DNA from: Chloroflexota bacterium
GTDB lineage: Bacteria; Chloroflexota; Limnocylindria; P2-11E
Direction of reading: 5' to 3'
Assembly: GCA_005889275.1 (NCBI GenBank)
Contig: VBFI01000044.1
Location: 22,509-86,508 of the forward strand
DNA length: 64,000 nt
In this document: positions 17,611 to 39,054 of the stretch, one piece after another
How positions within the stretch are numbered: position 1 is the stretch's first letter
Layout of the letters: every line of letters starts with the position of its first letter
The notes under the pieces: generated by a model
Database searches by the model: none
Told to the model about the DNA's origin: nothing
What the model saw: the letters and a program-made list of their open reading frames with translations, nothing else
Made by a program: the position numbers and the translations under genes

Positions 17611-18126
17611 GTGCCGCTCTACGGCTACCGCGGGAAAACGCCGAAGGTCGCGGCCGACGCGTTCATCGCTCCAACGGCGGTCCTGATCGGCGACGTGACC
17701 GTCGAGAGCGGCGCCTCCGTCTGGTTCGGCACGGTCCTCCGCGGCGACATGGATCGGATCGTGATCGGCGCGCGCTCCAACGTGCAGGACAACTCGACGA
17801 TCCACACGGACGAGGGCGAGCCCACGCTTGTCGGCCCAGATGTGACGATCGGCCACAACGCCCTCGTGCACTCGAGCGTCATCGCCCGGAACGTGCTCAT
17901 CGGGCAGGCCGCGGTCCTCGTGGGGGGCAACGTCATCGGCGAGGAGACGATCGTCGGCGCGGGCGCGGTGCTCCCCGAGAAGTTCTCGCCCCCCGCGCGA
18001 TCGCTCGTCCTCGGGGTGCCGGCGAAGGTCGTCCGCGAGACGCGGCCGGACGACGCCCGCTGGACCGTGCGAGCCGCGGAGCACTACACCGACCTCGGGC
18101 GCTGGTACCGCGAGAACTTGCGATAG
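17611..18126 (+). CDS. gamma-carbonic anhydrase family (hexapeptide-repeat, PaaY/CaiE/YrdA-like) protein
   Basis: MPLYGYRGKTPKVAADAFIAPTAVLIGDVTVESGASVWFGTVLRGD...TIHTDEG...IGHNALVHS. GTG 17611 lies 12 nt from the divergent aroG start. Confidence 0.85.
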   Translation: MPLYGYRGKTPKVAADAFIAPTAVLIGDVTVESGASVWFGTVLRGDMDRIVIGARSNVQDNSTIHTDEGEPTLVGPDVTIGHNALVHSSVIARNVLIGQAAVLVGGNVIGEETIVGAGAVLPEKFSPPARSLVLGVPAKVVRETRPDDARWTVRAAEHYTDLGRWYRENLR

Positions 18127-18257
18127 CGACCCTCCGGCTCACCGGCCACGACCTTTCGATCGCCGACGTCGTCGCGGTCGCGCGCGAGGACATCGCGGTC
18201 GGTCTCGACCGCGCCGCGGAGCGCTCGGTCCAACAGGCGGCCAAGGTCGTCTCGCAG

Positions 18258-19490
18258 ATGGCCGGCGGGGACGAGCCGGTGTACGGCGTGAACACCGGGT
18301 TCGGCGACCTTTCCACCGTGCGGATCCCGCACGACGAGCTCCGCGCGCTTCAACGCAACCTCGTCCGCAGCCACGCCGTCGGCGTCGGCCCGGGCGACCT
18401 CGCGCCGCTCGCGCACGCCGCGCTCGTGCTTATCGGCGAAGGCGAGACCATCGAGGGGACGAAGCGGCGCGCCGGCGGAGAGGCTCTCCGTGCCGCGGGC
18501 CTCAAGCCCCTCGAGCTCGCGCCGAAGGAGGGTGTGTCGCTCATCAACGGCACGCAGGTGATGACCGCCATCGGGTGCCTGGCGCTCCACGACGCGGAGG
18601 TCCTCGCGACGACGGCCGACGTCGTCGGCGCGATGTCCGCCGAGGCCCTGCGCGGGACCGACCGCGCGTGGGACGAGGAGCTGCACGCGAGCCGGCCGCA
18701 TCCCGGACAGCAGACCGTCGCCGGCAACCTGCGCGCGCTCATGGCCGGCAGCCCGAACGTCGCCTCGCACCGCGTCGGAGACCCGCGCGTCCAGGACCCG
18801 TACTCGGTGCGCTGCATGCCGCAGGTGCATGGCGCGACGCGCGACGCGCTCGGCTACACCCGGCGCGTCCTCGAGGTCGAGATCAACGCGATCACCGACA
18901 ACCCGATCGTGTTCGCGGAAGACCACCGGATCGTGAGCGGCGGCAACTTCCACGGGCAGCCGGTCGCCATCGCCCTCGACCTCGCGACGATCGCCGTGGC
19001 CGAGCTCGCCGACATCAGCGAGGCGCGGATCGATCGCATGACGAACGGCCACACGAGCGGGCTGCCGGCTTTCCTCTCGCCATCGCCGGGCACGAACTCA
19101 GGCTTCATGGTCGCGCAGTACACGGCGGCGGCCCTCGTCACCGAGAACCGGATGCGCTCGTTCCCCGCGTCGGTCGAGTCGCTGCCGACGTCGGCCGGCA
19201 TGGAGGACCATGTGAGCATGGGCGTCCACGCCGCGCACAAGCTCGCCGAGGTCGTCCGCAACACCCGCGACGTGCTCGCGATCGAGGCGCTCTGCGCAAC
19301 GCAGGGCCTCGACCTCCTCGAGACGACGACGGCGCCGGCCGTCGAGGAGGCGCGCCGGGTGGTTCGCGAGCGCTCAGGGCGGCTCGAGGCCGACCGCTCC
19401 CTCGCCGGCGACATCGCGAACATGTCGGACGCGATCGCGCGTGAGGTGTTCATCGCCGCCGTGCGCGTGCGCCTCCCGGAGCTCGCCTGA
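18258..19490 (+). CDS. hutH: histidine/aromatic ammonia-lyase family protein (HutH-like), lacking the MIO-forming Ala-Ser-Gly segment; possibly non-functional
   Basis: Strong HAL homology: YGVNTGFG, LQRNLVRSHA, GDLAPLAHAALVLIGEG, NGTQ, DPYS.RC.PQV, SGGNFHG. However, AVGVGP is joined directly to GDLAPL, so about 47 residues including the ASG triad are missing in frame. Conserved N-terminal homology continues upstream to about 18123 with no ATG/GTG/TTG. Confidence 0.6.
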   Translation: MAGGDEPVYGVNTGFGDLSTVRIPHDELRALQRNLVRSHAVGVGPGDLAPLAHAALVLIGEGETIEGTKRRAGGEALRAAGLKPLELAPKEGVSLINGTQVMTAIGCLALHDAEVLATTADVVGAMSAEALRGTDRAWDEELHASRPHPGQQTVAGNLRALMAGSPNVASHRVGDPRVQDPYSVRCMPQVHGATRDALGYTRRVLEVEINAITDNPIVFAEDHRIVSGGNFHGQPVAIALDLATIAVAELADISEARIDRMTNGHTSGLPAFLSPSPGTNSGFMVAQYTAAALVTENRMRSFPASVESLPTSAGMEDHVSMGVHAAHKLAEVVRNTRDVLAIEALCATQGLDLLETTTAPAVEEARRVVRERSGRLEADRSLAGDIANMSDAIAREVFIAAVRVRLPELA

Positions 19491-19491
19491 G

Positions 19492-19953
19492 GTGAAGCGC
19501 ACGCTCACGGTGAATGGCGCCGGCCGCGAGGTCGATGTCGCGCCGAGCGTCTCGCTTCTCTCGGCGCTACGGGACGACCTGGGCTTGACCGCGACGCGCT
19601 ACGGCTGCGGCCGCGGGCAGTGCGGCGCCTGCTACGTGATCGCCGACGGGCGGGCCGTGGCCTCGTGCCTGCTCACCGTCGACCAGGCGGCGCGGATGGA
19701 GATCACGACCGTGGAGGGCCTGGCGACGGACGGGACGCTCAGCCCGGTGCAGCAGGCGTTCGCCGACCTCGACGCGATGCAGTGCGGGTACTGCACGAGC
19801 GGCATGCTCATCTCCGCGACCGCCCTTCTCGACCGCGACCCGGAGCCCGACGAGGCGGAGGTGCGCGACGCGCTCGCCGGCAATCTGTGCCGCTGCGGCG
19901 TCTACGGCCGTGCGATCCGCGCCGTGCTCACGGCGGCGGAGGCGCTTCGTTGA
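19492..19953 (+). CDS. (2Fe-2S)-binding small subunit of a xanthine-dehydrogenase-family molybdoenzyme
   Basis: CGRGQCGAC...CQCGYCTSGM...CRCGVY motifs. GTG 19492. Confidence 0.85.
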   Translation: MKRTLTVNGAGREVDVAPSVSLLSALRDDLGLTATRYGCGRGQCGACYVIADGRAVASCLLTVDQAARMEITTVEGLATDGTLSPVQQAFADLDAMQCGYCTSGMLISATALLDRDPEPDEAEVRDALAGNLCRCGVYGRAIRAVLTAAEALR

Positions 19954-21941
19954 GCGGCTGGGGCGAGGAGCGCCGCGAGGACCTCGCGCAGCGCATCCGC
20001 GTGGAGCCCGACGGCACGGTCGTCGCCCTCTCCGGCAAGATCGACTTCGGACAGGGGATCCGCACCGCGTTCGCGCAGATCGTGGCCGACGAGATCGACG
20101 TGCCCATCGAGCACGTGCGCGTGGTCCTGGGCGACACCGCCGAGACGCCGTTCGATTTCGGCACGTTCGGCAGTCACTCGGTGGCGCAGGAGGCGCCGCT
20201 GCTGCGGAAGGCGGCGGCGTTCGCGCGGCGTCAGCTCATCGAGCGCGCCGCTCGCAGGCTCGCGCTCGGCGCCGAGCGCCTCGACACGGAAGCCGGCGCG
20301 GTCGTCGGCGGAGGCCGGCGCATCGCCTACGGCGAACTCGTCGACGGCAGGCACCTCGCGGGTCCCATCCCCGACGAGGTCCCGCTCATGCCGCCGGCGC
20401 GCCGCCGCTACAGCGGTCAGCCGATGCCGCGGCTCGAGGCGCGCGACATCGTGACGGGACGAGCGACCTACGTCGCCGACCTCCGTCTCGACGGAATGCT
20501 CCGCGGTGCGATCGCCCGCCCGCCGTCGCGCGGCGCGAAGGTCCGTTCGGTCGACGACGCGAGCGCGCGGAAGCTCCCGGGCGTCGTCGCCGTCGTCCGG
20601 GATGGGGACGTGGTCGGGGTCGTCGCCGAGCGCGACGAGCAAGCGCGCGCGGCGGCCGCGGCCCTCGAGATCGACTGGGAGATCACGCCGCTCGAAGGCC
20701 CGAGCGCCGAGGTGCCGATGCGCCAGGATCCCGGCGTCGACGCGGCGCTCGCGAAGGCCGCGAAGCAGGTTGAGCGAACCTACGTCCTGCCACCGATCGC
20801 GAACGCCCCGATCGGACCGAGCGCGGCCGTCGCCGACGTCCGCGCCGACGGCGCCACGGTGTACGTGGGTACCCATCGCCCGTTCGGGATCCGCGAGCAG
20901 GTCGCGAAGACGATCGGCCTGGAGACCGCGAGCGTACGCGTCGTCCCGCTGATCACGAGCGGCACCTACGGTCGCAACACCCTGGGCGACGCGACGCTCG
21001 AGGCCGCGATCCTCAGCAAGGGAGCGCGGCGCCCGGTCCTCCTGCAGTGGACGCGCGAGGAGGAGTTCGCGTGGTCGCCGTCCCGGCCCGAGGCGGTGCT
21101 CGAGGTGAGCGCGGGACTCGACGACGGCGGTCGCATCCTCGCGTGGCGCTACGAGGAGCACACGAACGTCCACACCGCCGCCGGGCTCGAGCCTCGCGTC
21201 CTCGGCATGACCTCCGGCCGGAACGCGATCCCGCCTTACGCGATCCCGAGCGCGTCCGTCGTGCTGCGCATCGAGCCGACGCGACTGCGCACGGCGAACT
21301 TTCGCTCGCTCGCGGCGTCGGAGAACGTCTTCGCGATCGAATCGTTCATGGACGAGCTCGCGAGCGAGACGAAGCAGGACCCGCTCGCCTTCCGCCTCCG
21401 CCACATCGCCGATCCGCGCCTGCGGCGGGTCGTGGAGCGGGTCGCCGAGCGGAGCGGCTTCGGCGAAGGGCCGGGCGAGCGTCGCGGCCGTGGGATCGCG
21501 TGCACGATCTATCACGACACGTACGTCGCGCAGGTGGCCGAGGTCGAGGTCTCGCCCGCTGGCGCCGTGCGCCTGGTTCGCGTCTGGTGTGTCGTCGATC
21601 CGGGCGAGGTGCTCAACCCCGATGGCGTGCGCAATCAGGTCGAAGGCGGGATCCAGCAGTCGGCGTCGTGGACGCTCCTCGAGGAGCTGCACCACCGTGA
21701 CGGCCGCGTGGTGACCACCGGGTGGGACGCCTACCCGATCGCCACGTTCCGCGATGCGCCGGAGTCGATCGACGTCCTGGTCGAGGGGGACCCCGCTGCG
21801 CCGCCCACCGGCGTCGGCGAGCCCGGCGCGGTGCCGATCGCCGCCGCGATCGCGAACGCGGTCTACGCCGCGTGCGGGGCGCGCGTCCGGGAGCTGCCGA
21901 TCACCCGCGACCGGGTGCGGAAGGCGATCGCCGGCCGCTAA
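19950..21941 (+). CDS. molybdopterin-binding large subunit (aldehyde oxidase/xanthine dehydrogenase family, IorB-like)
   Basis: KIDFGQGIRTAFAQIVADEIDVPIEHVRVVLGDTAETPFD... The TTG start at 19950 overlaps the small-subunit stop (TTGA). No FAD-binding medium subunit nearby. Confidence 0.8.
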   Translation: MSGWGEERREDLAQRIRVEPDGTVVALSGKIDFGQGIRTAFAQIVADEIDVPIEHVRVVLGDTAETPFDFGTFGSHSVAQEAPLLRKAAAFARRQLIERAARRLALGAERLDTEAGAVVGGGRRIAYGELVDGRHLAGPIPDEVPLMPPARRRYSGQPMPRLEARDIVTGRATYVADLRLDGMLRGAIARPPSRGAKVRSVDDASARKLPGVVAVVRDGDVVGVVAERDEQARAAAAALEIDWEITPLEGPSAEVPMRQDPGVDAALAKAAKQVERTYVLPPIANAPIGPSAAVADVRADGATVYVGTHRPFGIREQVAKTIGLETASVRVVPLITSGTYGRNTLGDATLEAAILSKGARRPVLLQWTREEEFAWSPSRPEAVLEVSAGLDDGGRILAWRYEEHTNVHTAAGLEPRVLGMTSGRNAIPPYAIPSASVVLRIEPTRLRTANFRSLAASENVFAIESFMDELASETKQDPLAFRLRHIADPRLRRVVERVAERSGFGEGPGERRGRGIACTIYHDTYVAQVAEVEVSPAGAVRLVRVWCVVDPGEVLNPDGVRNQVEGGIQQSASWTLLEELHHRDGRVVTTGWDAYPIATFRDAPESIDVLVEGDPAAPPTGVGEPGAVPIAAAIANAVYAACGARVRELPITRDRVRKAIAGR

Positions 21942-26324: not shown

Positions 26325-27995
26325 TCAGCTCCCCCGACGATGGATCACCCGGCCGCCCAGGATCGTCATGTCGACCTCCGTCGAGGCGATGTCTCGGGCG
26401 CCCAGCGGCAGGATGTCGCGCGAGAGGACCACGAGGTCGGCGAGCTTGCCCAGGGCGATGCTTCCCCTTTGGTCCTCCTCGTACGACGCGTACGCCGGAT
26501 TGATCGTGTACGCGGCGATGGCCTCCTCGACCGTGAGCGCCTCTTCGGGATGCCATGCACGCTCGACCGCGAGCGCGATGTTCTGCAGTGGCGCGAGCGG
26601 GGTGGCGCGCTGCTCGTTGAAGCTCCCGGGCCAGTCCGACACCAGGTCGAGCCGCGCGCCGGCGTCGCGGAGCGAGCGCCAGGCGTGCGCGGTCTTCGCG
26701 CGCTCCGGTCCCAGGCGCCGCTCGACCGTCCGCATGTCGTTCACGAGGTGCTGCGGGGTGACGTCGACGATGAGCCCGAGCTTCCCGATGCGCTCGATCT
26801 CGCGAGCGCTCGGGTACCAGGCGTGGATCACGCGGAAGCGGCGGTCACGCGGCGGATTGGCGCGGATCGCGGCCTCGTACCAGTCGAGAAGGAGCCGGTG
26901 CGCCTTGTCGCCGATGGTGTGCACGACCGGATCGAAGCCGGCGGCGTCCGCGCCCGCGATGTCCGCGGCCATCGTCTCCTCGTCGACGAAACGGAAGGTG
27001 AACGAACCGGCGTAGTCGGGCTCATTCGCGTACGGGGCGTCCATGAGGAATCCATCGATGAACGCCTTGAGGCCGCCGAAGCGGATGCGGCCCTCGTCCG
27101 TCCGCGGGCGAACGCCACATGCGAGCACGTCTCGCCACACCGCGAGCGTCAGGAACGCGTAGACACGCATCGTGAGCCGGCCCCGCCGCTGCAGCTCGCG
27201 GAAGAGCGCGAGGTCGGTCGCGCTCCGTTCGACGTCGGTGTGGAACAGGTGCCGTCGCGAAACCTCGTCGAGCCGGGTCACGTCGTGGATCCCGGTGATC
27301 CCCGCGCGGCGCAGCTCCTCGAGCGCCGACTCCGCCCCCGCGACCATGAGCTCGAGATTCGCCGGCGGCATGAGCTCGGCCATCCGCTCCCCCGCACGCC
27401 CGAGGAGGATGCCAGTCGGCATACCGTCGGCATCGCGCCGGATCTCGCCGCCCCGAGGGTCAGGTGCGCGCCGGTCGAGACGGGCGCGGGCGAGCGCGAG
27501 CGAGTTCGCGACGTAGGCGCCGTCGACGCGGCGCAGCAGGATCGGGTGATCGGGGGCCACGGCATCGAGGCGCCGTCGGTCGATCGGCATCGGCGCGGGC
27601 CGTGGCGCCCCTTTCTCGTCGGCGGCCCACGCCGCGGCGGCATCGAGATCGCCGCCCGTGAGCCACAGGCCTTTCGGTACCCGACGCGCCGACGTCGCGA
27701 TCTTCTCGAGCACCGCGTCGGCGTCGCGCTCCTCGTAGAGGCCGACGCGGAAGGTCCAAGCCGCGGCGTTGCCGAAGTGCGTGTGCGCGTCGATGAACCC
27801 GGGAAGCGCCAGGCGGCCGGCCAGCTCGACGACCTCGGTCCGCGGTCCGGCGAGGGGCCGGAGATCCTCGTCGGTACCCACGGCGACGATGCGCTCGCCG
27901 CGGACCGCCACCGCCCGCGCCTCGGGCCGTCGTGGGTCGACGGTCCATACGCGGCCTCCGCGCAGGATGAGGTCGGCCGGTTCGGCCGTGCTCAG
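26325..27995 (-). CDS. amidohydrolase-family (Amidohydro_3, metal-dependent TIM-barrel) hydrolase
   Basis: PGFIDAHTHF, HTIGDKA and C-terminal ALGKLADLVVL motifs. The conserved N-terminus (AEPADLILRGGRVWTVDP) extends upstream of the first GTG (27911). The likely start is CTG 27995, overlapping the upstream stop (CTGA). Confidence 0.75.
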   Translation of the reverse strand: MSTAEPADLILRGGRVWTVDPRRPEARAVAVRGERIVAVGTDEDLRPLAGPRTEVVELAGRLALPGFIDAHTHFGNAAAWTFRVGLYEERDADAVLEKIATSARRVPKGLWLTGGDLDAAAAWAADEKGAPRPAPMPIDRRRLDAVAPDHPILLRRVDGAYVANSLALARARLDRRAPDPRGGEIRRDADGMPTGILLGRAGERMAELMPPANLELMVAGAESALEELRRAGITGIHDVTRLDEVSRRHLFHTDVERSATDLALFRELQRRGRLTMRVYAFLTLAVWRDVLACGVRPRTDEGRIRFGGLKAFIDGFLMDAPYANEPDYAGSFTFRFVDEETMAADIAGADAAGFDPVVHTIGDKAHRLLLDWYEAAIRANPPRDRRFRVIHAWYPSAREIERIGKLGLIVDVTPQHLVNDMRTVERRLGPERAKTAHAWRSLRDAGARLDLVSDWPGSFNEQRATPLAPLQNIALAVERAWHPEEALTVEEAIAAYTINPAYASYEEDQRGSIALGKLADLVVLSRDILPLGARDIASTEVDMTILGGRVIHRRGS

Positions 27996-28982: not shown

Positions 28983-30623
28983 CTAACCCTCCACCCAGGC
29001 GTCGTTCATGGCCGTGCCGGTGAGACCGTCCGGTCCGGGTTTGAAGTCGTGCACCTTCGTCGCCATCGCTTCGACGCGGACTTGGCTCATGACCCCGACG
29101 AACGGCAGGATCTCCATGACCCGCTTCTGCGCATCGACGTACGTTTGCTTGCGCTCCGGCGTGTTCAGATCCTGTCCCTGTCCCTTTACGAGGAGCGCAT
29201 CGAGCTGCGGGTCGTTCGTGTTCGAGAAGTTGCTGCCCGAGACACGGTTCGCCGAGTGATAGCAGACCCGCAGGACGCCGTCCGGGTCGATGCTCGTCGA
29301 CGACGTCGCCGCCATGTTGTGCTTGTACGCGCGGACGTAGTCGAGATACGGGCCGCGCTCCATCACCTGGACCTTGAGATCGATCCCGACGTCGCGAAGC
29401 TGCGACTGCATCGCCTGTGCGATCTCGGTCCAGGGGCTGCGGAAGGTCGCGAGCGCGATCTCGAGATTCTGGCCGTTCTTCTGCCGGATCGGACCCGAGC
29501 CCTGCTTCCATCCGGCGTCGTCGAGGAGTTTCTTCGCCTTCGCCGGGTCGAACGTGAAGGTCTTCTCGATCGTGTCGTCGCGCGCCCAGACGCCTTCCGA
29601 GAGCGGACCGACCGACACGTGGTGGACGCCGAAGAAGATCTTTTCGACGATCGACTTCCGGTCGACGGCCCAGTTCGCCGCCTCGCGGACCGCGTGGTCG
29701 TCGGTCGGCGCCCGCGCGACGTTCATGCTGAACCCGAGCGTGTGGCTCGCGCGCGGCGACATCACGAACCGGAAGCGCTTGTCGTCCTTGAGCCGCGCGT
29801 AGTCCGCCTCGGGGATCTCGTCGATGAAGAGGTTCTCGCCGCTCTCGAGCGTCGCGACGCGCGTGGAGGGCTCGGTGATCGCGCGGAACTTCAGCTGGTC
29901 GAGGTACGGCGCGGCGCGGTTCTTGAAGAGCTCGTTCCCCCAGTTGTAGTCGGGGTAGGCCTTCAGCGTGACGACGCCGTCCGGCGACCTGCCCGCGAAC
30001 ATGAACGGGCCCGAGCCCACCGGCTCCGTCGCGACGTCGCCGGGCTTGAGCGTCGCGAGGTACTTCGGCGAGAGGACGCCGAAGAAGTACCGCCAGATCT
30101 GGAGCATGAACGCGGCATAGGGCTGCTTGAAGCTGAAGACGACCGTCTTGTCATCCGGTGTGGTGATCTTGTCGATCGGGCCGACCAGCGAAACGACGGC
30201 GCCCGCCTTCGTCTTCGGATCGAGGATCCGTTCGAACGAGCCTTTGACGGCCGCCGAGGTGAGCGCGCTGCCGTCGTGGAATTTCACCCCGTCTCGGAGC
30301 GTGAAGGTGAACGTCTTCGACGAGTCGGTGATCGTCCACTTCGCGGCAAGCGCCGGGTAGAACTTCTGGTCGCTGTCCATGGTGATGAGCGTGTCGAGGA
30401 TGTTCTGGGCGATCTCGCCGGCCGCGGCGCCGGTCGTGAGCGCGGGATCGATCACGTCGATCTTGTCCCACTGCCCCCAGGTGACCGTCCCGCCCTTCGT
30501 CGGCTTCAGCGACGCCGATGCGGTCGGCGCGGTGGCCGCCGGTGCGCACGCGAAGATCGCGACACTCGCCGCCGCAAGGGCCGAGCGCCGCAGGAACTCG
30601 CGACGGTACATCTGCTCGTTCAT
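28983..30623 (-). CDS. ABC-type substrate-binding protein, family 5 (DppA/OppA-like), Tat signal
   Basis: MNEQMYRREFLRRSALAAASVAIFA is a twin-arginine signal, followed by an SBP_bac_5 fold. ATG 30623 overlaps the aminotransferase stop (ATGA). GGGGGAG Shine-Dalgarno upstream. Confidence 0.85.
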   Translation of the reverse strand: MNEQMYRREFLRRSALAAASVAIFACAPAATAPTASASLKPTKGGTVTWGQWDKIDVIDPALTTGAAAGEIAQNILDTLITMDSDQKFYPALAAKWTITDSSKTFTFTLRDGVKFHDGSALTSAAVKGSFERILDPKTKAGAVVSLVGPIDKITTPDDKTVVFSFKQPYAAFMLQIWRYFFGVLSPKYLATLKPGDVATEPVGSGPFMFAGRSPDGVVTLKAYPDYNWGNELFKNRAAPYLDQLKFRAITEPSTRVATLESGENLFIDEIPEADYARLKDDKRFRFVMSPRASHTLGFSMNVARAPTDDHAVREAANWAVDRKSIVEKIFFGVHHVSVGPLSEGVWARDDTIEKTFTFDPAKAKKLLDDAGWKQGSGPIRQKNGQNLEIALATFRSPWTEIAQAMQSQLRDVGIDLKVQVMERGPYLDYVRAYKHNMAATSSTSIDPDGVLRVCYHSANRVSGSNFSNTNDPQLDALLVKGQGQDLNTPERKQTYVDAQKRVMEILPFVGVMSQVRVEAMATKVHDFKPGPDGLTGTAMNDAWVEG

Positions 30624-31981
30624 CGTGAGGCTCCCCCACCCGTGGTCGTGATCGCGAGCGACGCGTCGAGGATGTCCAGCCCTTCGTCGAGCTGCGCGTC
30701 CGAGATCGTGAGCGGCACGAGCGTGCGGATGACGTTCGAGTAGAGGCCTGCGCGCAGCAGGATCAGCCCGCGCTCGCAGGCCGTACGGATGGTCGCGTCT
30801 ACGGTTGCCGGGTCGGGCTTCTTCGTGGTGCGGTCGCGGACGAGCTCGATCGCGCGCATCGCGCCGAGCCCGCGGACGTCGCCGATCACCTCGTGCCGCG
30901 TCGCCATCTCGGCGAAGCGCTCGCCGATGACGCCGCCGATCCGCGACGCCCGCTCCAGCAGCCCGTCGCGCTCGATGATCTCGATCGTCTTGATCGCCGC
31001 GGCGCAGGCCACCGGGTGCCCGCCGAACGTGCTGCCGAGCGATCCGGGGCCGAGCGCGTCGAAGAGCTCGGCGCGGCCGGTGACCGCCCCGATGGGGAAA
31101 CCCGCGCCGAGCGACTTCGAGGTGATGAGAAGGTCGGGCGTCACGCCCGAGTGCTCGATCGCGAACATCTTGCCCGTGCGCCCCATGCCGGTCTGGATCT
31201 CGTCGGCGATGAAGAGGATGCCGTGGCGGCGGCAGATGGCCGCGATCCGCTTCAGGAATCGCGCCGGCGGGACGACGAACCCTCCCTCGCCCTGGACCGG
31301 CTCGACGATCACGGCGGCGACGTGCTCGGGCGCGAGGTTCGTCTCGAGGACCTGCTCGAACAGGCGCACGTGGAGCTCGCCGAGCTCATCGTCGCCGACC
31401 TCGGCGATCGGCCGGTAGGGATACGGGTAGGGCACGTGCGCGACGTTCGGGGTCGTGGAGCGCATGAACGCCATCCGCGAGCTCTTCGTCTTGCCGGTCG
31501 CGGTCATCGCCGTGTACGTGCGTCCGTGGAAGCTGTTCTGGAAGGCGATGACCCACTCGCGGCCGGTCGCGACGCGGGCGATCTTGATCGCGTTCTCGAC
31601 CGCTTCGGCGCCACTGTTCGCGAAGACGCTCTTCGTCGCGACCGCGGTGCCCCCGCTCTTCGGGTAGATCCGGTCGAGCTCCTGCGCGAGCCGCACGTAC
31701 GGCTCGTAGGTCACGACCTGCGCCGACACGTGCGCGTATCGCTCGAGCTGCTCGCGCACCGCTCCGATGACCTCGGGATGCTGATGCCCGAGGTTCAGCG
31801 CGCCGATGCCCGCGACGAAGTCGAGATAGCGGCGGCCCTCCGGGTCGAACAGCTCGGCGCCGGACGCCCTGGCCACGACGACCGGGGTCCCGACGTGCAG
31901 CCCCTTCGGGACGAATCGCTCCCGCAGCTCCCGGACCTCCGCCGTGCCGGATCCACTCCGAGTTTCGATGAGCGTGCTCAC
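30620..31981 (-). CDS. gabT: class-III PLP aminotransferase (4-aminobutyrate/omega-aminotransferase-like)
   Basis: FDPEGRRYLDF...NSGAEAVENAIKIAR...EPVQGEGGF...DEIQTGMGRTGKMFA...TSKSLGAGFP matches GabT. GTG 31981 overlaps the RpiR stop (GTGA). Confidence 0.85.
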   Translation of the reverse strand: MSTLIETRSGSGTAEVRELRERFVPKGLHVGTPVVVARASGAELFDPEGRRYLDFVAGIGALNLGHQHPEVIGAVREQLERYAHVSAQVVTYEPYVRLAQELDRIYPKSGGTAVATKSVFANSGAEAVENAIKIARVATGREWVIAFQNSFHGRTYTAMTATGKTKSSRMAFMRSTTPNVAHVPYPYPYRPIAEVGDDELGELHVRLFEQVLETNLAPEHVAAVIVEPVQGEGGFVVPPARFLKRIAAICRRHGILFIADEIQTGMGRTGKMFAIEHSGVTPDLLITSKSLGAGFPIGAVTGRAELFDALGPGSLGSTFGGHPVACAAAIKTIEIIERDGLLERASRIGGVIGERFAEMATRHEVIGDVRGLGAMRAIELVRDRTTKKPDPATVDATIRTACERGLILLRAGLYSNVIRTLVPLTISDAQLDEGLDILDASLAITTTGGGASR

Positions 31982-32901
31982 GCCACTTCCCCTTTCGTCC
32001 GCTCGTCGATCCGAGCGCGCAATTCCTGAAGCTCCTCGGCGGCGGCCAGCGCGCCGGCGCGATCGCGACGGGCCAGCCCGAAGAGAAGCGCGTCCAGGAC
32101 GACGACCGTGATCGCCGACAGATGGAACATGCCGCCCCCCGCCCGGCGCGCCGAGAGCGCCACCGTGAACTGGCCCGCGAGCGCGAGACCGAGCGTGTCG
32201 GTGATGAGGAGCGAAGGAAGCGCGAGCTCCCGGGCACGCTCCAGCGTGAGCTCCGCCTCGGGGCTCGAGCGGTCGTAGGCCAGGACGACGACGACGTCGC
32301 CGCGGCGCATGTCGATGAGCACGTCCGCGAGCGCCTGGCCGCGCGCACCGACGGAGAGCGCCGAGCGCCGCATGCGCCGGAGCCGGGCCGCGAAGTATTC
32401 GGCGAGCGGCGCGTTCGGGCCGAGTCCCTGCACGACGACTCGCTGCGCGCCGGCCATGAGCTCGAGCGCTCGCGCGAAATCGGTCGCCCGGAGGGTCTCG
32501 CGCGCGTCATGGAGCAGCTGCAGCTCGGTGGCGAGGACGTGCTCCAGCACCGCGGCTGGATCATCGCCCAGGTCCTCAAGGCTGCGGCCCAGGCGGAGCG
32601 TCGGCGTGGCCCGGGTGCGCAGCGCCTCACGCAGCTCGGCCTTGAGCGCGGGCAGTCCGGTGTAGCCGAGCGACTGCGCCGCGCGGATGACCGTCGCATC
32701 GCTCATGTCCAGCCGCGCGGCGATCTCGACCGCCGAGAGGAACATGACCTCCTCGCGATGCTGCGCGAAGAAGGTGGCGACGCGATCCTCGGCCGGACTG
32801 AGGCTCGCGCGCGCCGCGGCGATCCGCTCCTCGAGCGATGGCTCGGCGACCTCCGCCCGGCGGGCATGCCCGTGGCCCTGCGCGGCCTCAGTAGCGTTCA
32901 C
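31978..32901 (-). CDS. RpiR/MurR-family transcriptional regulator (HTH_6 plus SIS domain)
   Basis: LSPAEDRVATFFAQH...VEIAARLDMSDATVIRAAQSLGYTG is the HTH. The SIS region is QRVVVQGLGPNAPLAEYFAARL. GTG 32901. The upstream part of the tracked 702-aa ORF is junk. Confidence 0.75.
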   Translation of the reverse strand: MNATEAAQGHGHARRAEVAEPSLEERIAAARASLSPAEDRVATFFAQHREEVMFLSAVEIAARLDMSDATVIRAAQSLGYTGLPALKAELREALRTRATPTLRLGRSLEDLGDDPAAVLEHVLATELQLLHDARETLRATDFARALELMAGAQRVVVQGLGPNAPLAEYFAARLRRMRRSALSVGARGQALADVLIDMRRGDVVVVLAYDRSSPEAELTLERARELALPSLLITDTLGLALAGQFTVALSARRAGGGMFHLSAITVVVLDALLFGLARRDRAGALAAAEELQELRARIDERTKGEVA

Positions 32902-32964
32902 TTCAGCACCGAGTGCAGACTGTAGTGTATGCTGCGAGACGATTTCAACTGGGGCGGTGAGGCG

Positions 32965-34119
32965 ATGGCAGCAGCGGAGCTCACCACGATCGAGATCAGC
33001 GGCTCGCGCGGTGAGCTGGGTCGGCAGCATGGCGAGGCCGCCCGGAGCCAGATCGGCGAGTCGATCGGCTACTACCGCGAGTCGTTCAAACGCATCACCG
33101 GCCTGGAATGGGCCGAGATCCGCCGGAACGCCCCGCGCTGGGTGCAGCCCATCGACGCGTACCTGCCGGGGATCACCGACGAGATCCGCGGTATCGCCGA
33201 AGGCGCGGGCGTCGACTTCGCCGAGATCCTCGCGCTCAACGCGCGCGGCGAGCTGTCGACGCACAACCCCTTCGCCGAAGCGGCCGAGGAGGGCTGCTCC
33301 TCGTACGCGATCTTGCCCGAGGCCTCCGGCGACGGACACGTGTACTGCGGCCAGAACTGGGACTGGCGCTGCGAGACCTTCGGGACGGTGATCCTCCTGC
33401 GCATCGTTCAGCCGGGCCGGCCGACCATCATCATGCAGACAGAAGCCGGTCAGGTCGGGCGTCACGGCGCGAACTCGGCGGGCATCGCGCTCAACGCGAA
33501 CGGCCTCGGTGCCCGCTGGGGCAAGGGCATCGGCGTTCCCCAGCCGATCATCCGCCGCAGGATCCTGGAGGCGCCGGAGATGCAGACCGCGCTCCGCGCC
33601 GTCTTCGACTCCCGCCAGTCGCTCTCCACGAACCTCCTGGTGACCCACCGCGACGGCTTCGCCATCGATCTCGAGACGACGCCTGACCGCCATGGCTGGA
33701 TGTACCCGACGGCCGGCCTCCTCGTGCATACCAATCACTTCATCGCGTTCGTGCCCGAGCAGATCGCGGCGACCTATCGGCCCTTCTCGGTGAATTCGCT
33801 CTGGCGCCTTCCCCGGCTCACCGAGGGGCTGCGCGCGGCGAAGAGGCCCGGCGACAGCGCGGAGGTCCGTGGCGCGATCGGGGCCGCCCTCCGCGATCAC
33901 TTCGGCTATCCGAACTCGGTCTGCAAGCACGGCGACGAGGCATCTCAGGGGACGGACCTCAATCAGACGATCGCCTCGAGCATCGTCGATCTCACGACCG
34001 GCGAGTATTGGCTGGCGGCGGGGAATCCGTGCGAGGGCGAATATCGGAAGCTGCCCTGGAACATCTACGACGAAGCGGGAGCGCATCCGCGACAGGTGGC
34101 CACTGCCGGTCGGGCGTGA
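32965..34119 (+). CDS. peptidase C45 / acyl-CoA:6-aminopenicillanic-acid acyltransferase-family Ntn-hydrolase
   Basis: The autoproteolytic Gly-Cys site is EEGCSSYAIL...CGQNWDW. ATG 32965 with GGTGAGG Shine-Dalgarno. Divergent from the RpiR gene. Confidence 0.7.
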   Translation: MAAAELTTIEISGSRGELGRQHGEAARSQIGESIGYYRESFKRITGLEWAEIRRNAPRWVQPIDAYLPGITDEIRGIAEGAGVDFAEILALNARGELSTHNPFAEAAEEGCSSYAILPEASGDGHVYCGQNWDWRCETFGTVILLRIVQPGRPTIIMQTEAGQVGRHGANSAGIALNANGLGARWGKGIGVPQPIIRRRILEAPEMQTALRAVFDSRQSLSTNLLVTHRDGFAIDLETTPDRHGWMYPTAGLLVHTNHFIAFVPEQIAATYRPFSVNSLWRLPRLTEGLRAAKRPGDSAEVRGAIGAALRDHFGYPNSVCKHGDEASQGTDLNQTIASSIVDLTTGEYWLAAGNPCEGEYRKLPWNIYDEAGAHPRQVATAGRA

Positions 34120-35072
34120 TGCGCGAAGCGACGCTCCGCGTCTACTCGGGACGCAACCGTCCGGACCTGACGCCCATATACCGGCTTTTCGAGCGCCTCA
34201 CGGACACGAGGGTCGAGGTGGAGATGATCTACCACCTCGACGTCGAGCGACGACTCGCCGAGGAGCGCCACGATCCGATCGCGGACGTGCTCGTCACGAA
34301 CAGCCAGGTCGCGGTCGAGGCGGTCCGCGGATCGGGACTCTTCGAGCCGTACGCGCCGGAGGTCGCGCGCGGGTTCGACGAATGGCTCCGCGCGCCCGAC
34401 CACTCATGGCTCTCGTTCGCGGCGTGGCCGCGGACCGCGATGATCAATCGCCGCCTTCTTCCCGACCCCGCGAGCTGGCCACGGACGCTCGAGGAGCTCG
34501 CGGCCGAGCGCTTTCGCGGGAAGATCTCGATGGCAACGACGAACGAGGAGACGACGGTCTCGCAGTGGAGCGCGATCCGCGCCGCCAGAGGCGACGACTT
34601 CGCCTGGCACCTTCTGGACCGGCTCCGCGCGAACGGCCTCCGCACCTACGGATCGAACAAGGCGACGCGGGAAGCGCTCGTGCGCGAGGGAAACGCGATC
34701 GCCCTCGTGAACTCGTCGAACTACCACGTGTTCCTAATGGAGGGGAACCCCGTCGGCGAGGCCTGGCTCGATCAGGAGCCCGGAGGGCTCGGAACGCACG
34801 TCGAGGCGCACGTGGTCGCCGTGGTGAAGGGCGCCCGTCACGTTGAGGCCGCGCGGTCCTTCGTCGATTTCCTGCTCTCGGCCGATACGCAGACCCTCCT
34901 CGCGCGGATGTTCGGCGAGACGCCGGTGAACCCCGCGGCGATCACCGGATCGGTCCGGCCGCTCGCGCAGATCAGACGCACCGCGGTCGCCCTCGCGAAG
35001 ATCACTGAGCTCCGGGACAGCACGCGCGCGCAGCTGGCCAAGCGGGGCTTCGCCCCACCGGCCGGCGACTAG
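34119..35072 (+). CDS. SBP-fold protein (Fe3+/thiamine-type periplasmic-binding-protein family) without a signal peptide
   Basis: MREATLRVYSGRNRPDLTPIYRLFERLT...VLVTNSQVAVEAV is an SBP_bac_1/8-like fold. No N-terminal hydrophobic signal is present. ATG 34119 overlaps the C45 stop. Confidence 0.65.
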   Translation: MREATLRVYSGRNRPDLTPIYRLFERLTDTRVEVEMIYHLDVERRLAEERHDPIADVLVTNSQVAVEAVRGSGLFEPYAPEVARGFDEWLRAPDHSWLSFAAWPRTAMINRRLLPDPASWPRTLEELAAERFRGKISMATTNEETTVSQWSAIRAARGDDFAWHLLDRLRANGLRTYGSNKATREALVREGNAIALVNSSNYHVFLMEGNPVGEAWLDQEPGGLGTHVEAHVVAVVKGARHVEAARSFVDFLLSADTQTLLARMFGETPVNPAAITGSVRPLAQIRRTAVALAKITELRDSTRAQLAKRGFAPPAGD

Positions 35073-35080
35073 GACGGACC

Positions 35081-36343
35081 GTGCTCGACTGGCTCAGCGT
35101 CGACGGCAAGAAGCTTCTCGCGACGCGGGTCCTGCGGACATTCGCGTACGGCTACCTCGCGGTGGTCCTCGGTCTCTTCCTCGACAAGCTCGGGATGTCC
35201 CCGATCGAGATCGGCCTCGTCTTCACCGCGGCTATCGCCGGCTCTGCGGTGATGACGGTCTTCTGGTCGCTCATCGCCGACCGTTACGGACGGCGGCGCA
35301 CCGTCGCGACCATGGCGGTGCTCATGGCGATCGGCGGTCTCATCTTCGCGGGGACGAGCAGCTTCTGGCTCCTCCTCGTCGGCGCGTTCACCGGGACGAT
35401 CAGCGCGACGAGCTCCGAGGTCGGCGTGTTCCAGACCGTCGAGCAGGCCGTGCTCCCGCAGACCGCGCCGAACGAGCGCCGCACCTGGCTCTTCTCGATC
35501 TACAACATGGCGGCGAACTTCGCGGGCGCGTTCGGCTCGCTCGCGGCGGCCTCGGTCGGATTCTTCGCGGCCCACGGTCTCGCGGGCGCCGATGCGTATC
35601 GCCCGCTTTTCGTCTTGTACGCGCTCATCGGCCTCGCCAACCTCGCGATCTTCCTTACGCTTTCGGACCGGGTCGAGCTCGCGCACGTCGAGGGGCAGCG
35701 CCGCTTCCTCGGTGTCCACCGCTCCGCCGGGACCGTCGCGAAGCTCTCGGCGCTCTTCGGGCTCGACGCGTTCGCCGGTGGCTTCGTCGTCCAGTCGGTC
35801 GTCGCGTACTGGTTCTACCTGCGCTGGGGACTCGATCCCGCGGCGCTCGCCGGGATCTTCTTCTGGGTCGGGATCCTGTCGGGGTTGTCGCTCCTCGCCG
35901 CGGGCTGGCTCGCCGAGCGCATCGGTCTCCTCAACACGATGGTGTTCACCCACCTCCCGTCGCAGTTCGCACTCCTGCTCATCCCTCTCGCGCCGACGGC
36001 GGGGCTCGCGGTGGCGCTCTACCTGGCGCGCATGAGCGTCTCTCAGATGGACGTGCCGACCCGGCAGTCCTACACGATGGCGGTGGTCGACCCCGACGAG
36101 CGCACCGCCACCGCGGGCATCACGAACGTTGCCCGGACGAGCGCCACCGCGATCGCGCCGACGTTCGCGGGCATGGCCTTCAGCGCGGCGGCCCTCGGTC
36201 TTCCGTTCTTCATCTCGGCTGCGCTCAAGATCGTGTACGACGTCGCCATCTACGCGACCTTCCGGAACGTGCATCCTCCCGAGGAGCGTGCCCGCCGCGA
36301 ATCGCGGCAGGTCCCGCCGACGCCGGAGACGACCGCGACGTGA
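35081..36343 (+). CDS. MFS transporter
   Basis: 420 aa, 12 TM helices, with IADRYGRRRTV between TM2 and TM3. GTG 35081 with AGGA upstream. Confidence 0.85.
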   Translation: MLDWLSVDGKKLLATRVLRTFAYGYLAVVLGLFLDKLGMSPIEIGLVFTAAIAGSAVMTVFWSLIADRYGRRRTVATMAVLMAIGGLIFAGTSSFWLLLVGAFTGTISATSSEVGVFQTVEQAVLPQTAPNERRTWLFSIYNMAANFAGAFGSLAAASVGFFAAHGLAGADAYRPLFVLYALIGLANLAIFLTLSDRVELAHVEGQRRFLGVHRSAGTVAKLSALFGLDAFAGGFVVQSVVAYWFYLRWGLDPAALAGIFFWVGILSGLSLLAAGWLAERIGLLNTMVFTHLPSQFALLLIPLAPTAGLAVALYLARMSVSQMDVPTRQSYTMAVVDPDERTATAGITNVARTSATAIAPTFAGMAFSAAALGLPFFISAALKIVYDVAIYATFRNVHPPEERARRESRQVPPTPETTAT

Positions 36344-36384
36344 GCGCGCCAGCGGGTAGGCTCTAGCCCGCCGAGAGGGGAAGC

Positions 36385-37329
36385 GTGGCCAGGTACGTCG
36401 CGCAAAGGCTCGCCGAGGCGGTCCCGGTCCTGCTGCTCGCGTCCGTCCTCGTCTTCTCGATCCTGCATCTGGTTCCCGGCGATCCGATCGACGCCATGAT
36501 CGGCGCCGCATCGTTCGGCGTGGGCGATCGGACCGCCCAGGAGCAGCTCGTCGCGCAGCTCCGCGAGCAGCTCGGCCTGAACGATCCGCTGCCGCTTCAG
36601 TACCTGCGCTGGCTGTGGAACGCGACGCATCTCGACCTCGGCGAGTCGTTCATCCGCCACCAGCCGGTGATGAAGCTCATCGGCGACCGGCTCCCGAGCA
36701 CGGTCGAGCTGGCGGGCGCGGCCCTCGTGCTGTCGGTGAGTCTCGGCGTCGTGCTCGGCCTCCTCGCCGCGGTGAAGCGCAACTCGCCGATCGATCGCCT
36801 GGTCATGCTCTTCTCGCTCGGCGGCGTCTCGATCCCGAGCTTCTTCTTCGCGATCCTGTTGATCCTGCTGTTCTCGGTCACGCTCGGCCTCGTTCCCGCG
36901 ACCGGCTCGGGCAGCCTCGACCGGCTCATCCTTCCGGCCCTCGTCCTCGGCTACGAGGGCACGGGCCTCATCGCGCGGCTCACGCGCGCGTCGCTCCTCG
37001 ACGTGCTCGGGCGCGAGTACGTGCGGACGGCGCACGCGAAGGGGCTCGCGCCGCGCAGCGTGCTTCTCGGTCACGCGATGCGCAACGCGCTCATCCCAGT
37101 GGTGACGATCGTCGGTCTCCAGCTCGGCCGCCTCCTCGCCGGCAGCGTGATCGTCGAGACGATCTTCGCGCGGCAGGGGATCGGGCAGCTCGCGATCGAC
37201 TCGATCATCGCGAAGGACTACCCGGTGGTACAGGGCGTGATCCTGCTCACCGCGACGACCTACGTGATCGCCAATCTTCTCGTCGACGTGTCGTATGGCT
37301 TCATCAACCCCAGGATCCGCGCCGCCTAG
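36385..37329 (+). CDS. dppB: ABC transporter permease (DppB/OppB-like)
   Basis: MARYVAQRLAEAVPVLLLASVLVFSILHLVPGDPIDAM...EYVRTAHAKGL...AMRNALIPVVT. GTG 36385 with GAGAGGGGA upstream. Confidence 0.85.
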   Translation: MARYVAQRLAEAVPVLLLASVLVFSILHLVPGDPIDAMIGAASFGVGDRTAQEQLVAQLREQLGLNDPLPLQYLRWLWNATHLDLGESFIRHQPVMKLIGDRLPSTVELAGAALVLSVSLGVVLGLLAAVKRNSPIDRLVMLFSLGGVSIPSFFFAILLILLFSVTLGLVPATGSGSLDRLILPALVLGYEGTGLIARLTRASLLDVLGREYVRTAHAKGLAPRSVLLGHAMRNALIPVVTIVGLQLGRLLAGSVIVETIFARQGIGQLAIDSIIAKDYPVVQGVILLTATTYVIANLLVDVSYGFINPRIRAA

Positions 37330-37346
37330 CGTCGGCCGTCCTGCCC

Positions 37347-38093
37347 GTGGCCATCGCCATCGACCCGTTCAAGCAGAGCCTCAAGGATTCGCTGCTCGCG
37401 CCCGGCACGCAGGGTCATCCGCTCGGCACGGACCAGTTCGGCCGCGACGTCTTGCTCCGGCTCATCGACGGCGGGCGCGCGTCGCTCTCGATCGGCTTCG
37501 CCGCCGTCGCGATCGCGATGGTGTCGGGAGGCCTCGTGGGGCTCGTCGCCGGGATGCGCGGCGGCTGGGTCGATCGGGCACTCATGCGGCTGGTCGACGT
37601 GGAGCTCGCGTTCCCCGGGATCCTCCTCGCGCTCATCATCGTGACCATCCTCGGCCCCGGCCTCGAGAAGGTCGCGATCGCCGTCGGGGTCGGCGGCATG
37701 CCGCGGTTCGCGCGCATCGTCCGCGGCTCGGTCCTCTCGACAAAGCACGAGCTGTTCATCGAGGCGGCGCGGAGCGTCGGGGCGAGCGAGCGGCGTGTCG
37801 CGTTTGCGCACGTCATGCCGCAGGTGCTCGGGCCGGTCATCACCATCGCGACGTTCGGACTCGCCACGGCGATCTTCTCGATCGCGGCGCTGTCGTTCCT
37901 CGGGCTGGGCGCGCAGCCCCCCGCCGCGGAGTGGGGCCTCATGCTGTCCGACGCGCGCCGCTACCTGCGGATCGCGTGGTGGCTCGCCGTGTTCCCTGGG
38001 ATCACCGTCACCTCGGTCGTGCTCGCCGCGAATCTCCTCGGCGACGCGGTACGCGACGCGCTGGATCCCCGTCTCTTCAGCAAGGCGGACTGA
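37347..38093 (+). CDS. dppC: ABC transporter permease (DppC/OppC-like), N-terminally truncated (TM1 absent)
   Basis: ...IAIDPFKQSLKDSLLAPGTQGHPLGTDQFGRDVL...EAARSVGASE. The first in-frame start after the dppB stop is GTG 37347. The upstream frame has no TM1. No ATPase genes follow. Confidence 0.6.
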   Translation: MAIAIDPFKQSLKDSLLAPGTQGHPLGTDQFGRDVLLRLIDGGRASLSIGFAAVAIAMVSGGLVGLVAGMRGGWVDRALMRLVDVELAFPGILLALIIVTILGPGLEKVAIAVGVGGMPRFARIVRGSVLSTKHELFIEAARSVGASERRVAFAHVMPQVLGPVITIATFGLATAIFSIAALSFLGLGAQPPAAEWGLMLSDARRYLRIAWWLAVFPGITVTSVVLAANLLGDAVRDALDPRLFSKAD

Positions 38094-38129
38094 GCTCCGC
38101 ACGGTCAGCGGAGCGCCGTCGGCTTTCGG

Positions 38130-38384
38130 CTACCGTCCGAGCGCGCGGCGGGCGGCCTGGGCCGAGCTCATGCGTTTGCTCTTACCCGGCGCGAGGGCCA
38201 CTCGGCGATGAACGTTGGACACCGCGTCACGCGGCAGATCGTGAATGAACGCGGCGGTGTTGTCCTTGAACAGCGGGATCTCGGGGACACGCTCCCAGCG
38301 CATGACCGCCGCGGCGAGATCCTTGGCCAGCGCCTTTCGGTTCTTGAACGTTCCTTCGGTGGCGTACACGTCGATCATCGGCAT
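38130..38384 (-). CDS. tautomerase-family protein (4-oxalocrotonate tautomerase-like, Pro1)
   Basis: MPMIDVYATEGTFKNRKALAKDLAAAVMRWERVPE. ATG 38384 makes Pro the catalytic residue 2. AGGAG lies 6 nt upstream. The tracked start at 38420 is too far upstream. Confidence 0.65.
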   Translation of the reverse strand: MPMIDVYATEGTFKNRKALAKDLAAAVMRWERVPEIPLFKDNTAAFIHDLPRDAVSNVHRRVALAPGKSKRMSSAQAARRALGR

Positions 38385-38404
38385 CGGCTGTCTCCTGGGT
38401 GGAA

Positions 38405-38457
38405 ATATGACGACCGTCATATCGTCGGCCGCACCTTAGCCTATGTCGATCGTCATA
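38405..38457. promoter_or_regulatory. two palindromic operator-like sites between the divergent tautomerase and TetR genes
   Basis: ATATGACG-ac-CGTCATAT (38405-38422; perfect 8-bp arms) and TATGtCGATCGtCATA (38442-38457). Both share a TATGACG/CGTCATA half-site. Confidence 0.5.
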
Positions 38458-38475
38458 GTCAAGGGGGTGCGCCGG

Positions 38476-39054
38476 ATGGGCAAGGAGAGCCGGGCCAGCA
38501 TGGTGCGGAGCGCCGCGTCGCTGATCCGTACCCGCGGCGTGAGCGCGACGTCGTTCTCGGACGTGCTGGCGGACAGTGGAGCGCCGCGCGGATCGATCTA
38601 CCACCACTTTCCGGATGGAAAGGCGCAGCTCGCCGCGGACGCGATCCGCTGGACGTCGGACCGGGTGCTCGCACACCAACGCGAGTGCCCCGCGACCACG
38701 GCGGCAGGGGTGCTGAACTGCTTCATCGACATGTGGCGGCAGGTCGTGGTGTCCTCGCGCGGCACCGCCGGATGCGTCGTGGCGGGCGTCGCGATCGACA
38801 CGGTCGCCGGCGACAAGGCCTTGATCGACGTCGTCCGCGCGACGTTCCGGTCCTGGGTCGACTTGCTGGCCAAGCAGCTCGCGGCCGTCGGTGTCCCACG
38901 TGAGCGAGCACGGGCCATCGCGGTCGCGACGGTGGCCGGCATGGAGGGCGCGCTCATCCTGTGCCGCGCCGAAGGTCGGAGCCGGCCGCTCGAAACCGTG
39001 GCTGCCGAGCTCATGCGTTTGCTCCCGCCCGACGCGAGGGCCACTCGGCGATGA
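38476..39054 (+). CDS. TetR/AcrR-family transcriptional regulator
   Basis: [44 protein letters not shown] is the TetR_N HTH. ATG 38476 with AAGGGGG upstream. The tracked start at 38443 overlaps the operator. Confidence 0.8.

Follow-up and report, generated by a model that had tools for sequence, protein, structure and literature searches.

An in-frame 162-nt gap at the MIO site of a histidine ammonia-lyase gene from a soil Chloroflexota contig, and the ATA codon at its start

The hutH Gene and Its Product

The stretch of DNA analyzed here, referred to as the window, comprises 64,000 nucleotides (nt) of contig VBFI01000044.1 from a Chloroflexota bacterium (assembly GCA_005889275.1), and the gene in question is hutH, which encodes histidine ammonia-lyase (HAL; HutH, EC 4.3.1.3). 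The window copy of hutH has an internal in-frame gap at the Ala-Ser-Gly triad, the motif from which the 4-methylidene-imidazol-5-one (MIO) cofactor is formed. The gene and the features of the gap are listed below.

18123-19490, forward strand: hutH (histidine ammonia-lyase) allele with 162 nt missing in frame from its interior (PF00221, TIGR01225)
18372-18392, forward strand: left copy of an imperfect 21-nt direct repeat, CACGCCGTCGGCGTCGGCCCG, coding for HAVGVGP
18391-18394, forward strand: deletion junction, CCG to GGC at 18392/18393, with a 3-nt CGG microhomology that makes the breakpoint ambiguous

The open reading frame (ORF) consists of 455 codons from ATA to TGA (19488-19490), and its translation reads IATLRLTGHDL...RSHAVGVGPGDLAPLAHAAL...PELA*. 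The product matches the Pfam aromatic amino acid lyase family PF00221 (E 3e-157), belongs to the hutH equivalog TIGR01225 (549.4 bits, cutoff 539.15) and exceeds the cutoff of NF006871 (563.4 bits, cutoff 524). Its closest solved relatives in the PDB are histidine ammonia-lyases, with the Pseudomonas putida enzyme 1gkm matched at E 2.5e-99. The assignment of an HAL-like gene to this interval, made in a first-pass annotation from the sequence letters, is thereby confirmed, as is its statement that the remaining HAL motifs are present: YGVNTGFG, SHA, NGTQ, QDPYSVRC, GGNFHG, and EDHVS are all retained, and alignments to 1gkm and to the family show that the counterparts of P. putida Y53, H83, N195, Y280, R283, F329, and E414 are all conserved. 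The likeness to characterized HutH (TIGR01225; P. putida HAL, PDB 1B8F/1GKM) is one of homology over the full length with the catalytic and substrate-binding residues outside the gap kept, while the window protein differs in lacking 54 residues (its own 91-144, about 90-143 in P. putida), two helices included, and in being encoded by a gene that apparently begins at ATA rather than ATG or GTG.

The proteins nearest to the window HAL all come from soil metagenome-assembled genomes (MAGs) of Candidatus Limnocylindria or Chloroflexota, and no second HAL copy was found in the 64-kb window. GenBank entry TMF27467.1 (455 aa; P0121 in our set; "MAG: histidine ammonia-lyase [Chloroflexi bacterium]") is identical to the ORF product, including the deletion, with the ATA read as Met. 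It bears the name histidine ammonia-lyase because the deleted protein scores above the TIGR01225 cutoff.

The Missing Segment

The TIGR01225 and PF00221 matches are each split into two stretches that skip profile positions of about 90-142, and the alignment to 1gkm breaks at chain residue ~90 and resumes at ~143. Translation across the gap gives ...RSHAVGVGPGDLAPLAH..., in which HAVGVGP is fused to GDLAPL, as the first-pass annotation had described. That annotation was also correct in placing an in-frame gap at the triad, although its estimate of about 47 residues or 141 nt was somewhat low: against near-identical contigs of the same species, the loss amounts to exactly 162 nt, or the 54 codons A91-S144 when numbering begins at the ATA. 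Ala143 and Ser144 of the MIO-forming triad are gone and Gly145 is kept, so that the window protein lacks the triad, and the segment between the SHAxGxG motif and the triad is gone as well. In the intact allele the sequence reads CAC GCC GTC GGC GTC GGC CCG / GCG CTC GCG GAG ... GTC GGC GCG TCG / GGC GAC CTC, with the slashes marking the two edges of the missing piece, and the junction peptide of the deleted product is SHAVGVGPGDLAPLAHAALVLIGEGETIEGTK.

The left edge of the gap coincides with one copy of an imperfect direct repeat. In intact alleles the right copy, CACGGCAGCGTCGGCGCGTCG (coding for HGSVGAS), lies 162 nt downstream of the left one and is identical to it at 13 of 21 positions, an in-register identity among the highest 0.4-1% when every pair of positions in the gene is considered. 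This imperfect repeat at the junction is a plausible substrate for slipped-strand deletion. A deletion between the exact 8-nt repeats GCGTCGGC was considered and rejected, the CGG microhomology inside the imperfect repeat being preferred; it would give HAVGVGASGD with the triad kept, unlike the product observed. Recombination with a breakpoint at the junction was rejected as well. Identity to conspecific contig L087 is 99.7% upstream of the junction and 98.5% downstream, and a profile of mismatches per 500 nt shows that their rise begins near 16.5 kb and not at the junction.

Conspecific Alleles and Homologs

The comparison within the species rests on 13 distinct contigs from different samples (L001, L085=L095, L086, L087=L091, L088, L090, L092-L094, and L096-L099), which are 97.6-99.7% identical to the window at the nucleotide level over up to 21 kb. 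All 13 contain the intact 162-nt segment (12 were aligned jointly and L001 pairwise), and the 464-aa products P0001 and P0123 equal the window protein except for the missing segment. The 162-nt loss is the sole indel that separates the window from every one of the 12 jointly aligned contigs, each of which spans part of 8.2-29.3 kb. The window HAL occupies the orthologous position, with the hexapeptide gene - HAL - Fer2/MoCoBD synteny preserved. Relative to functional orthologs in the 12 aligned contigs and in L001, the window gene carries a disabling lesion of the kind by which a unitary pseudogene is recognized. Independent assemblies of the same species thus effectively restore the Ala-Ser-Gly segment, an outcome that the first-pass annotation had itself described as contrary to its reading.

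Apart from the deletion, the window hutH is about 99% identical to the intact conspecific alleles. Its private substitutions number four (codons 187, 191, 207, and 468) and are all synonymous, so that the amino-acid sequence has no private change; this pattern is compatible with a very recent lesion, with an artifact, or with continued constraint. It bears directly on the proposal that the gene is an old pseudogene in a degrading hut pathway, in which both the start and the MIO segment have been lost while the pathway as a whole breaks down. The lack of a canonical start before Met46, the missing MIO segment, and the absence of hutI and hutG from the window would fit such a history. The near identity to intact alleles and the four synonymous changes do not, and neither do three observations detailed in later sections: the ATA/ATAG arrangement is common to seven lineages in which the enzyme is intact, two of the three comparisons made for codons 2-45 show purifying selection, and hutU is intact in a dispersed layout that relatives have too. 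We consider an old pseudogene very improbable.

The gap does not recur among homologs. It is found in none of the 120 best cluster representatives from a search of 5.8 billion proteins, all of which have the triad at normal spacing (in P0027 a flanking motif varies and GASGD is kept), and in none of the 150 best representatives from an exhaustive HMMER search, essentially all of which aligned to the query in two stretches with an offset of about 54 residues. The apparent exceptions are fragments cut short at the N-terminus or proteins with unrelated gaps: P0273, which resembled a gap-sharer because query residue 84 mapped to its residue 85, is an N-terminally truncated fragment with GASGD intact, and the internal gap of P0249 is a different one, located past the MIO site. 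A fully degenerate codon pattern for the junction gave 0 matches in Joint Genome Institute (JGI) metagenome contigs, and neither the exact 410-aa nor the 455-aa product is on record in the assembly collection; the 455-aa form occurs as NCBI entry TMF27467.1 only.

The gap is therefore no property of the gene family, whether the lesion is real or an artifact. It is either a private and very recent in-frame event or a local assembly error, and the window hutH is neither an old decaying pseudogene, because its private substitutions are only four and all synonymous, nor a paralog, a subfamily, or a new type of enzyme. The first-pass annotation had offered a decaying pseudogene or a catalytically repurposed HAL-like paralog, and had allowed that homologs sharing the gap might form a conserved functional subfamily. 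The near identity to intact alleles speaks against the pseudogene, the orthologous synteny and the intact conspecifics against the paralog, and none of the 270 best homologs (120 + 150) shares the gap. What holds of that reading is the loss of the MIO-forming residues and, probably, of activity; its framing as pseudogene or paralog is unsupported.

Consequence for the Protein and MIO-Independent Relatives

Formation of MIO was reportedly found to be essential for amino-group elimination by Langer et al. in 1994 and Schwede et al. in 1999. Structures of the deleted protein were predicted with AlphaFold2 on a 41-sequence alignment, with the intact clade member P0008 at equal alignment depth as control. 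The deleted protein reached a mean predicted local distance difference test score (pLDDT) of 71 and a predicted template modeling score (pTM) of 0.73, with residues 1-140 at 30-67 and the C-terminal helical core above 90, whereas the control reached a mean pLDDT of 85 and a pTM of 0.90, with 83-97 over most of the N-terminal domain. In the control model the residues that are deleted from the window protein form the end of a strand, helices 94-109 and 117-128, a strand at 136-139, and the MIO loop, all of them predicted confidently. The deleted model lacks the complete N-terminal domain fold of HutH, and Foldseek superposes it on HAL 1b8f with a TM score of 0.75 and a root-mean-square deviation of 6.7 Å. 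The predictions are consistent with a disrupted N-terminal domain, though a model does not prove misfolding. The MIO group formed from Ala-Ser-Gly is essential for elimination of the amino group (10.1101/2025.08.13.670108), and the ammonia-lyase activity of the deleted protein should therefore be lost, whatever its folding does; from the sequence, the loss is probable.

Active members of the lyase family that lack MIO and act on betaines do exist (10.1101/2025.08.13.670108; 6s7j), and the shortened protein could be a functional MIO-independent variant that folds and is retained for another role, such as trimethylamine elimination from hercynine or ergothioneine in the manner of ergothionase, or binding of histidine or urocanate without catalysis. 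In favor of such a variant, every other substrate-binding and catalytic residue is kept, the deletion is in frame and the private substitutions are all synonymous, and the score is still above the hutH equivalog cutoff. Ergothionase (6S7J) and the histidine betaine trimethylamine-lyase Swoo_3913 have in common with the window protein the lyase fold, the absence of Ala-Ser-Gly, and histidine-type binding residues. These enzymes form families that are conserved and have gene contexts of their own, and they retain the structural segment, with substitution confined to the triad. The same is true of several distant homologs without Ala-Ser-Gly (GSVGYL..., GSLGYL...), among them P0201, P0223, P0244, and P0262 (GSVGYL...), which swap the triad as ergothionase-type enzymes do but keep the segment of about 54 residues. 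A MIO-independent trimethylammonia-lyase is recognized by a substituted triad in a retained segment, and in the window protein the segment is absent. Unlike ergothionase and Swoo_3913, the window protein has lost the segment entirely, as an isolated case, and in sequence it is much nearer to true HAL (E 2.5e-99) than to ergothionase 6s7j (E 1e-50). The segment is missing in 0 of the 270 best homologs, the allele is confined to one assembly while other members of the species are intact, and AlphaFold confidence is lost over the entire N-terminal domain. A functional variant is thus highly unlikely. If a folded and selected MIO-less product did exist, the entire helical hairpin that bears MIO could evidently be removed without loss of the HAL fold.

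Deletion or Assembly Artifact

Several contigs related to the window are irregular in ways of their own. L089 (VBGS01000181.1, from MAG GCA_005889445.1, with an adjacent protein-accession series) changes in identity to the window from 73% upstream to 98.8% downstream at nt 2762-2912, within the conserved HGSVGASGDLAPLAH-coding stretch of the MIO motif. L089 is a cross-species assembly chimera or a recombinant, and its protein (TME26174.1) has been entered as an ordinary HAL of 509 aa. In L086 (Ga0209155_1010332) the sequence beyond HAL codon 269 diverges completely from that of every other contig and runs into a stop at codon 291, the result of either a rearrangement or a chimeric contig end. 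Other conspecific contigs have private indels of their own, 11-155 nt long, at window positions 14657, 16688, 20400, 24958, and 24997 (against L094, L088, L094, L090, and L096, respectively), and L094 lacks 38 nt and 28 nt, the 28-nt loss splitting the MoCoBD gene. Private indels are common in the population or in its assemblies.

The explanation that we favor, and hold to be moderately probable, is that the gene is the orthologous hutH of a soil Candidatus Limnocylindria population with a private, very recent, and real 162-bp in-frame deletion. That the deletion is private and recent and the gene an ortholog follows from the comparisons above; the existence of the lesion in the cells themselves and the loss of function are our inference. 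The likeliest origin would be replication slippage or a microhomology-mediated deletion that joined the HAVGVGP- and HGSVGAS-coding repeats. The product, having no Ala-Ser, could form no MIO electrophile, and the loss of two core helices and a strand from the N-terminal domain would leave a catalytically dead and probably misfolded ammonia-lyase. The resulting hutH would be a null allele or a nascent pseudogene.

The alternative is that the true gene is intact and that the 162-nt gap arose in assembly, in scaffold error correction, or in consensus building from a mixed Limnocylindria sample. We regard such an artifact as possible, though unlikely. It would account for a deletion found in only one of 14 conspecific contigs, for the absence of the junction from JGI metagenome contigs, and for the complete lack of private amino-acid changes, which is exactly what an artifact predicts. 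L089, apparently of the same accession series, switches lineage at the right edge of the gap, inside the HGSVGASGDLAPLAH-coding stretch, and the private indels in other conspecific contigs, some of them gene-splitting, suggest that assembly noise or strain indels are a general background. In the study of the Angelo grassland that is the probable (unverified) source, judging by the accession series and by the CRIT18-1_SAMN0890... sample names of the conspecific contigs, scaffold errors in the bins were also corrected automatically (PMC6784897). The sequence at the junction argues the other way. The exact microhomology is 3 nt and the longest exact repeat 8 nt, far below assembler k-mers; if the source is the data set of Diamond et al. 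2019, as we presume without verification, k was at least 30 and the junction k-mers should then occur in reads. The window is free of Ns, at the site and elsewhere, the 162-nt loss is the sole window-private indel in the roughly 21 kb compared, and the imperfect in-register repeat matches a genuine slippage event.

Several points weigh against a real, inactivating deletion. The deletion allele is known from one assembly alone, so that a local misassembly or curation artifact is possible, and with the junction in no JGI metagenome contig and the product in no other assembly the allele has no independent confirmation. The chimeric switch of L089 right at the MIO-motif-coding stretch marks the locus as a trouble spot for assembly graphs or recombination. 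As to loss of function, AlphaFold confidence is no measure of stability, and private changes that are synonymous in four of four cases also fit ongoing selection on the deleted protein.

If the deletion is real, at most one strain of the soil Limnocylindria population is without histidine deamination, with urocanase kept. The gene is an ordinary orthologous hutH that has lost the cofactor-forming residues, and its only mildly unusual feature, the conserved ATA/ATAG, belongs to the clade. In either case, a protein without the cofactor-forming residues passes the hutH equivalog cutoff, and annotation by profile score or metabolic reconstruction from MAGs counts the enzyme as functional.

The ATA Codon and the ATAG Overlap

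The start of the gene overlaps the end of the gene upstream, and the features that define this arrangement are as follows.

17611-18126, forward strand: gamma-carbonic-anhydrase-like hexapeptide-repeat gene, 171 aa (Pfam Hexapep; NCBIfam gamma-CA-like model below cutoff)
18123-18126, forward strand: ATAG, a putative ATA initiation codon (18123-18125) overlapping the upstream TAG (18124-18126), in the same -4 geometry as ATGA
18126-18257, forward strand: HAL codons 2-45, before the first canonical start, conserved as protein
18258-18260, forward strand: first in-frame ATG (Met46)

The first-pass annotation had observed that the conserved N-terminal 45 residues precede the first ATG at 18258 without an ATG, GTG, or TTG, and that an ATA overlaps the upstream TAG; this is correct for the whole species, since no in-frame ATG, GTG, or TTG lies upstream of Met46. 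Gene callers of the Prodigal type consequently start at Met46 in the conspecific contigs and give 464-aa products. Codons 2-45 align to the HAL N-terminus of PDB structures, and their ratio of nonsynonymous to synonymous substitution rates (dN/dS) is 0.11-0.14 against L083 and L084, like that of the rest of the gene, and 0.53 against L082 on small counts. Because of this rest-of-gene-like dN/dS, codons 2-45 appear to be translated. Initiation most likely takes place at the ATA, with probable coupling to termination on the hexapeptide gene, and the N-terminal peptide to be expected from such a start is (M)ATLRLTGHDLSIADVVAVAR.

The ATAG is present in the window and in 13 of 13 conspecific contigs, and also in L082 (~10022), L083 (~9956), L084 (~948), L100, L101, and L102, which makes seven species-level lineages in all; the six relatives are 74-77% identical to the window at the protein level and their enzymes are intact. 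With the arrangement spread across the clade, the missing canonical start says nothing about decay of the window copy. The NCBI annotation reads the ATA as Met in P0121 and in P0008. In sister lineages the position of the ATA is taken by the ATG or GTG start of hutH, the junction reading GTGA in L089 and TGAcgGTG in L002. A GTG at codon -7 was rejected as the true start; it occurs in L082, L083, L100, and L101 only, the window species (at 18102), L084, and L102 having CTG, and the choice between the two is set by a synonymous Arg codon (CGG for GTG) of the overlapping upstream gene.

Overlaps of -4 geometry (ATGA/GTGA) are used for coupling by termination-reinitiation (PMC10666635). The geometry in the window is the same, but the tetranucleotide is ATAG and the stop TAG, and the overlapping codon, unlike that in ATGA or GTGA, is the near-cognate ATA, normally a very weak initiator. 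The conservation of the ATAG suggests long-term use of a near-cognate start, possibly through termination-reinitiation, and the true start of hutH in the clade is apparently the conserved ATA within the overlap. Gene callers restricted to ATG, GTG, and TTG mis-start the gene, giving 464-, 486-, 491-, 494-, 516-, and 530-aa versions of the same protein. A near-cognate start so long conserved in a -4 overlap, together with hints of ACG and CTG starts in hutH of other Chloroflexota, is the more interesting lead to come from this locus.

Start codons were compared by means of a scan of the protein against genome contigs, in which the matches listed (at least 600) were mostly distant HALs with a best identity of 66%. 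Further hutH homologs from Chloroflexota, 49-51% identical, likewise have no canonical start ahead of the conserved N-terminus. In L045 (~810-900) a perfect Shine-Dalgarno sequence, GAAAGGAG, is followed 7 nt on by ACG, and ACG is found likewise in L014 (~1690) and L020 (~9980); in L023 (9938-10001) GAGGAGG is followed 6 nt on by CTG. Neither L045 nor L023 has an ATG, GTG, or TTG between the upstream in-frame stop and the N-terminus.

Gene Neighborhood and the hut Pathway

The hexapeptide gene is probably translationally coupled to hutH. Downstream of hutH, two genes of a molybdopterin oxidoreductase follow closely, the first with a GTG start 1 nt past the hutH stop, and hutU lies farther along the same strand.

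19492-19953, forward strand: [2Fe-2S] small subunit of a molybdopterin oxidoreductase (Pfam Fer2/Fer2_2)
19950-21941, forward strand: molybdopterin-binding large subunit with IorB-like domain order (Pfam MoCoBD_1/2, Ald_Xan_dh_C; NCBIfam partial)
39234-40883, forward strand: hutU, urocanate hydratase, intact (TIGR01228 911.8 bits, positions 2-544 of 545; three Pfam urocanase domains complete)

The gene order is response regulator, DAHP synthase (reverse strand), hexapeptide, HAL, Fer2, MoCoBD, SDH-type protease (reverse strand), HAD hydrolase, adenine glycosylase ... OFeT ... urocanase, an order found in relatives as well. The first-pass annotation had noted an intact hutU 20 kb away and no hutI or hutG in the window, and both statements are borne out: the TIGR01228 match is essentially complete, and about 50 scanned window ORFs include no HutI, arginase-type HutG, or FGase domain. 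None of these was found within ±10 kb of hutH in L082 or L083 either. The Amidohydro_3 protein at 26328-27911 was rejected as a HutI (TIGR01224 53.7 bits, cutoff 298). The layout that the first-pass annotation called fragmented is no sign of decay: hutH and hutU are likewise unlinked or only loosely linked in L082 and L083.

The relatives differ in what lies around and between the two genes. The Fer2 and MoCoBD (IorAB-like) pair at 19492-21941 is complete in the window species and absent in L083 (11485-11492), and in L082 (11548-13993) it appears fragmentary, with a 147-aa MoCoBD_2 call only. The distance between hutU and hutH is 3-6 kb in L083 and L082 and 20 kb in the window species. Between OFeT_1 and hutU, at 28983-39054, the window holds genes for SBP_bac_5, a class-III aminotransferase, an AAT-family acyltransferase, SBP, MFS, ABC permease, and TetR proteins. 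This block is absent in L082, and its intervention accounts for the 20-kb distance in the window.

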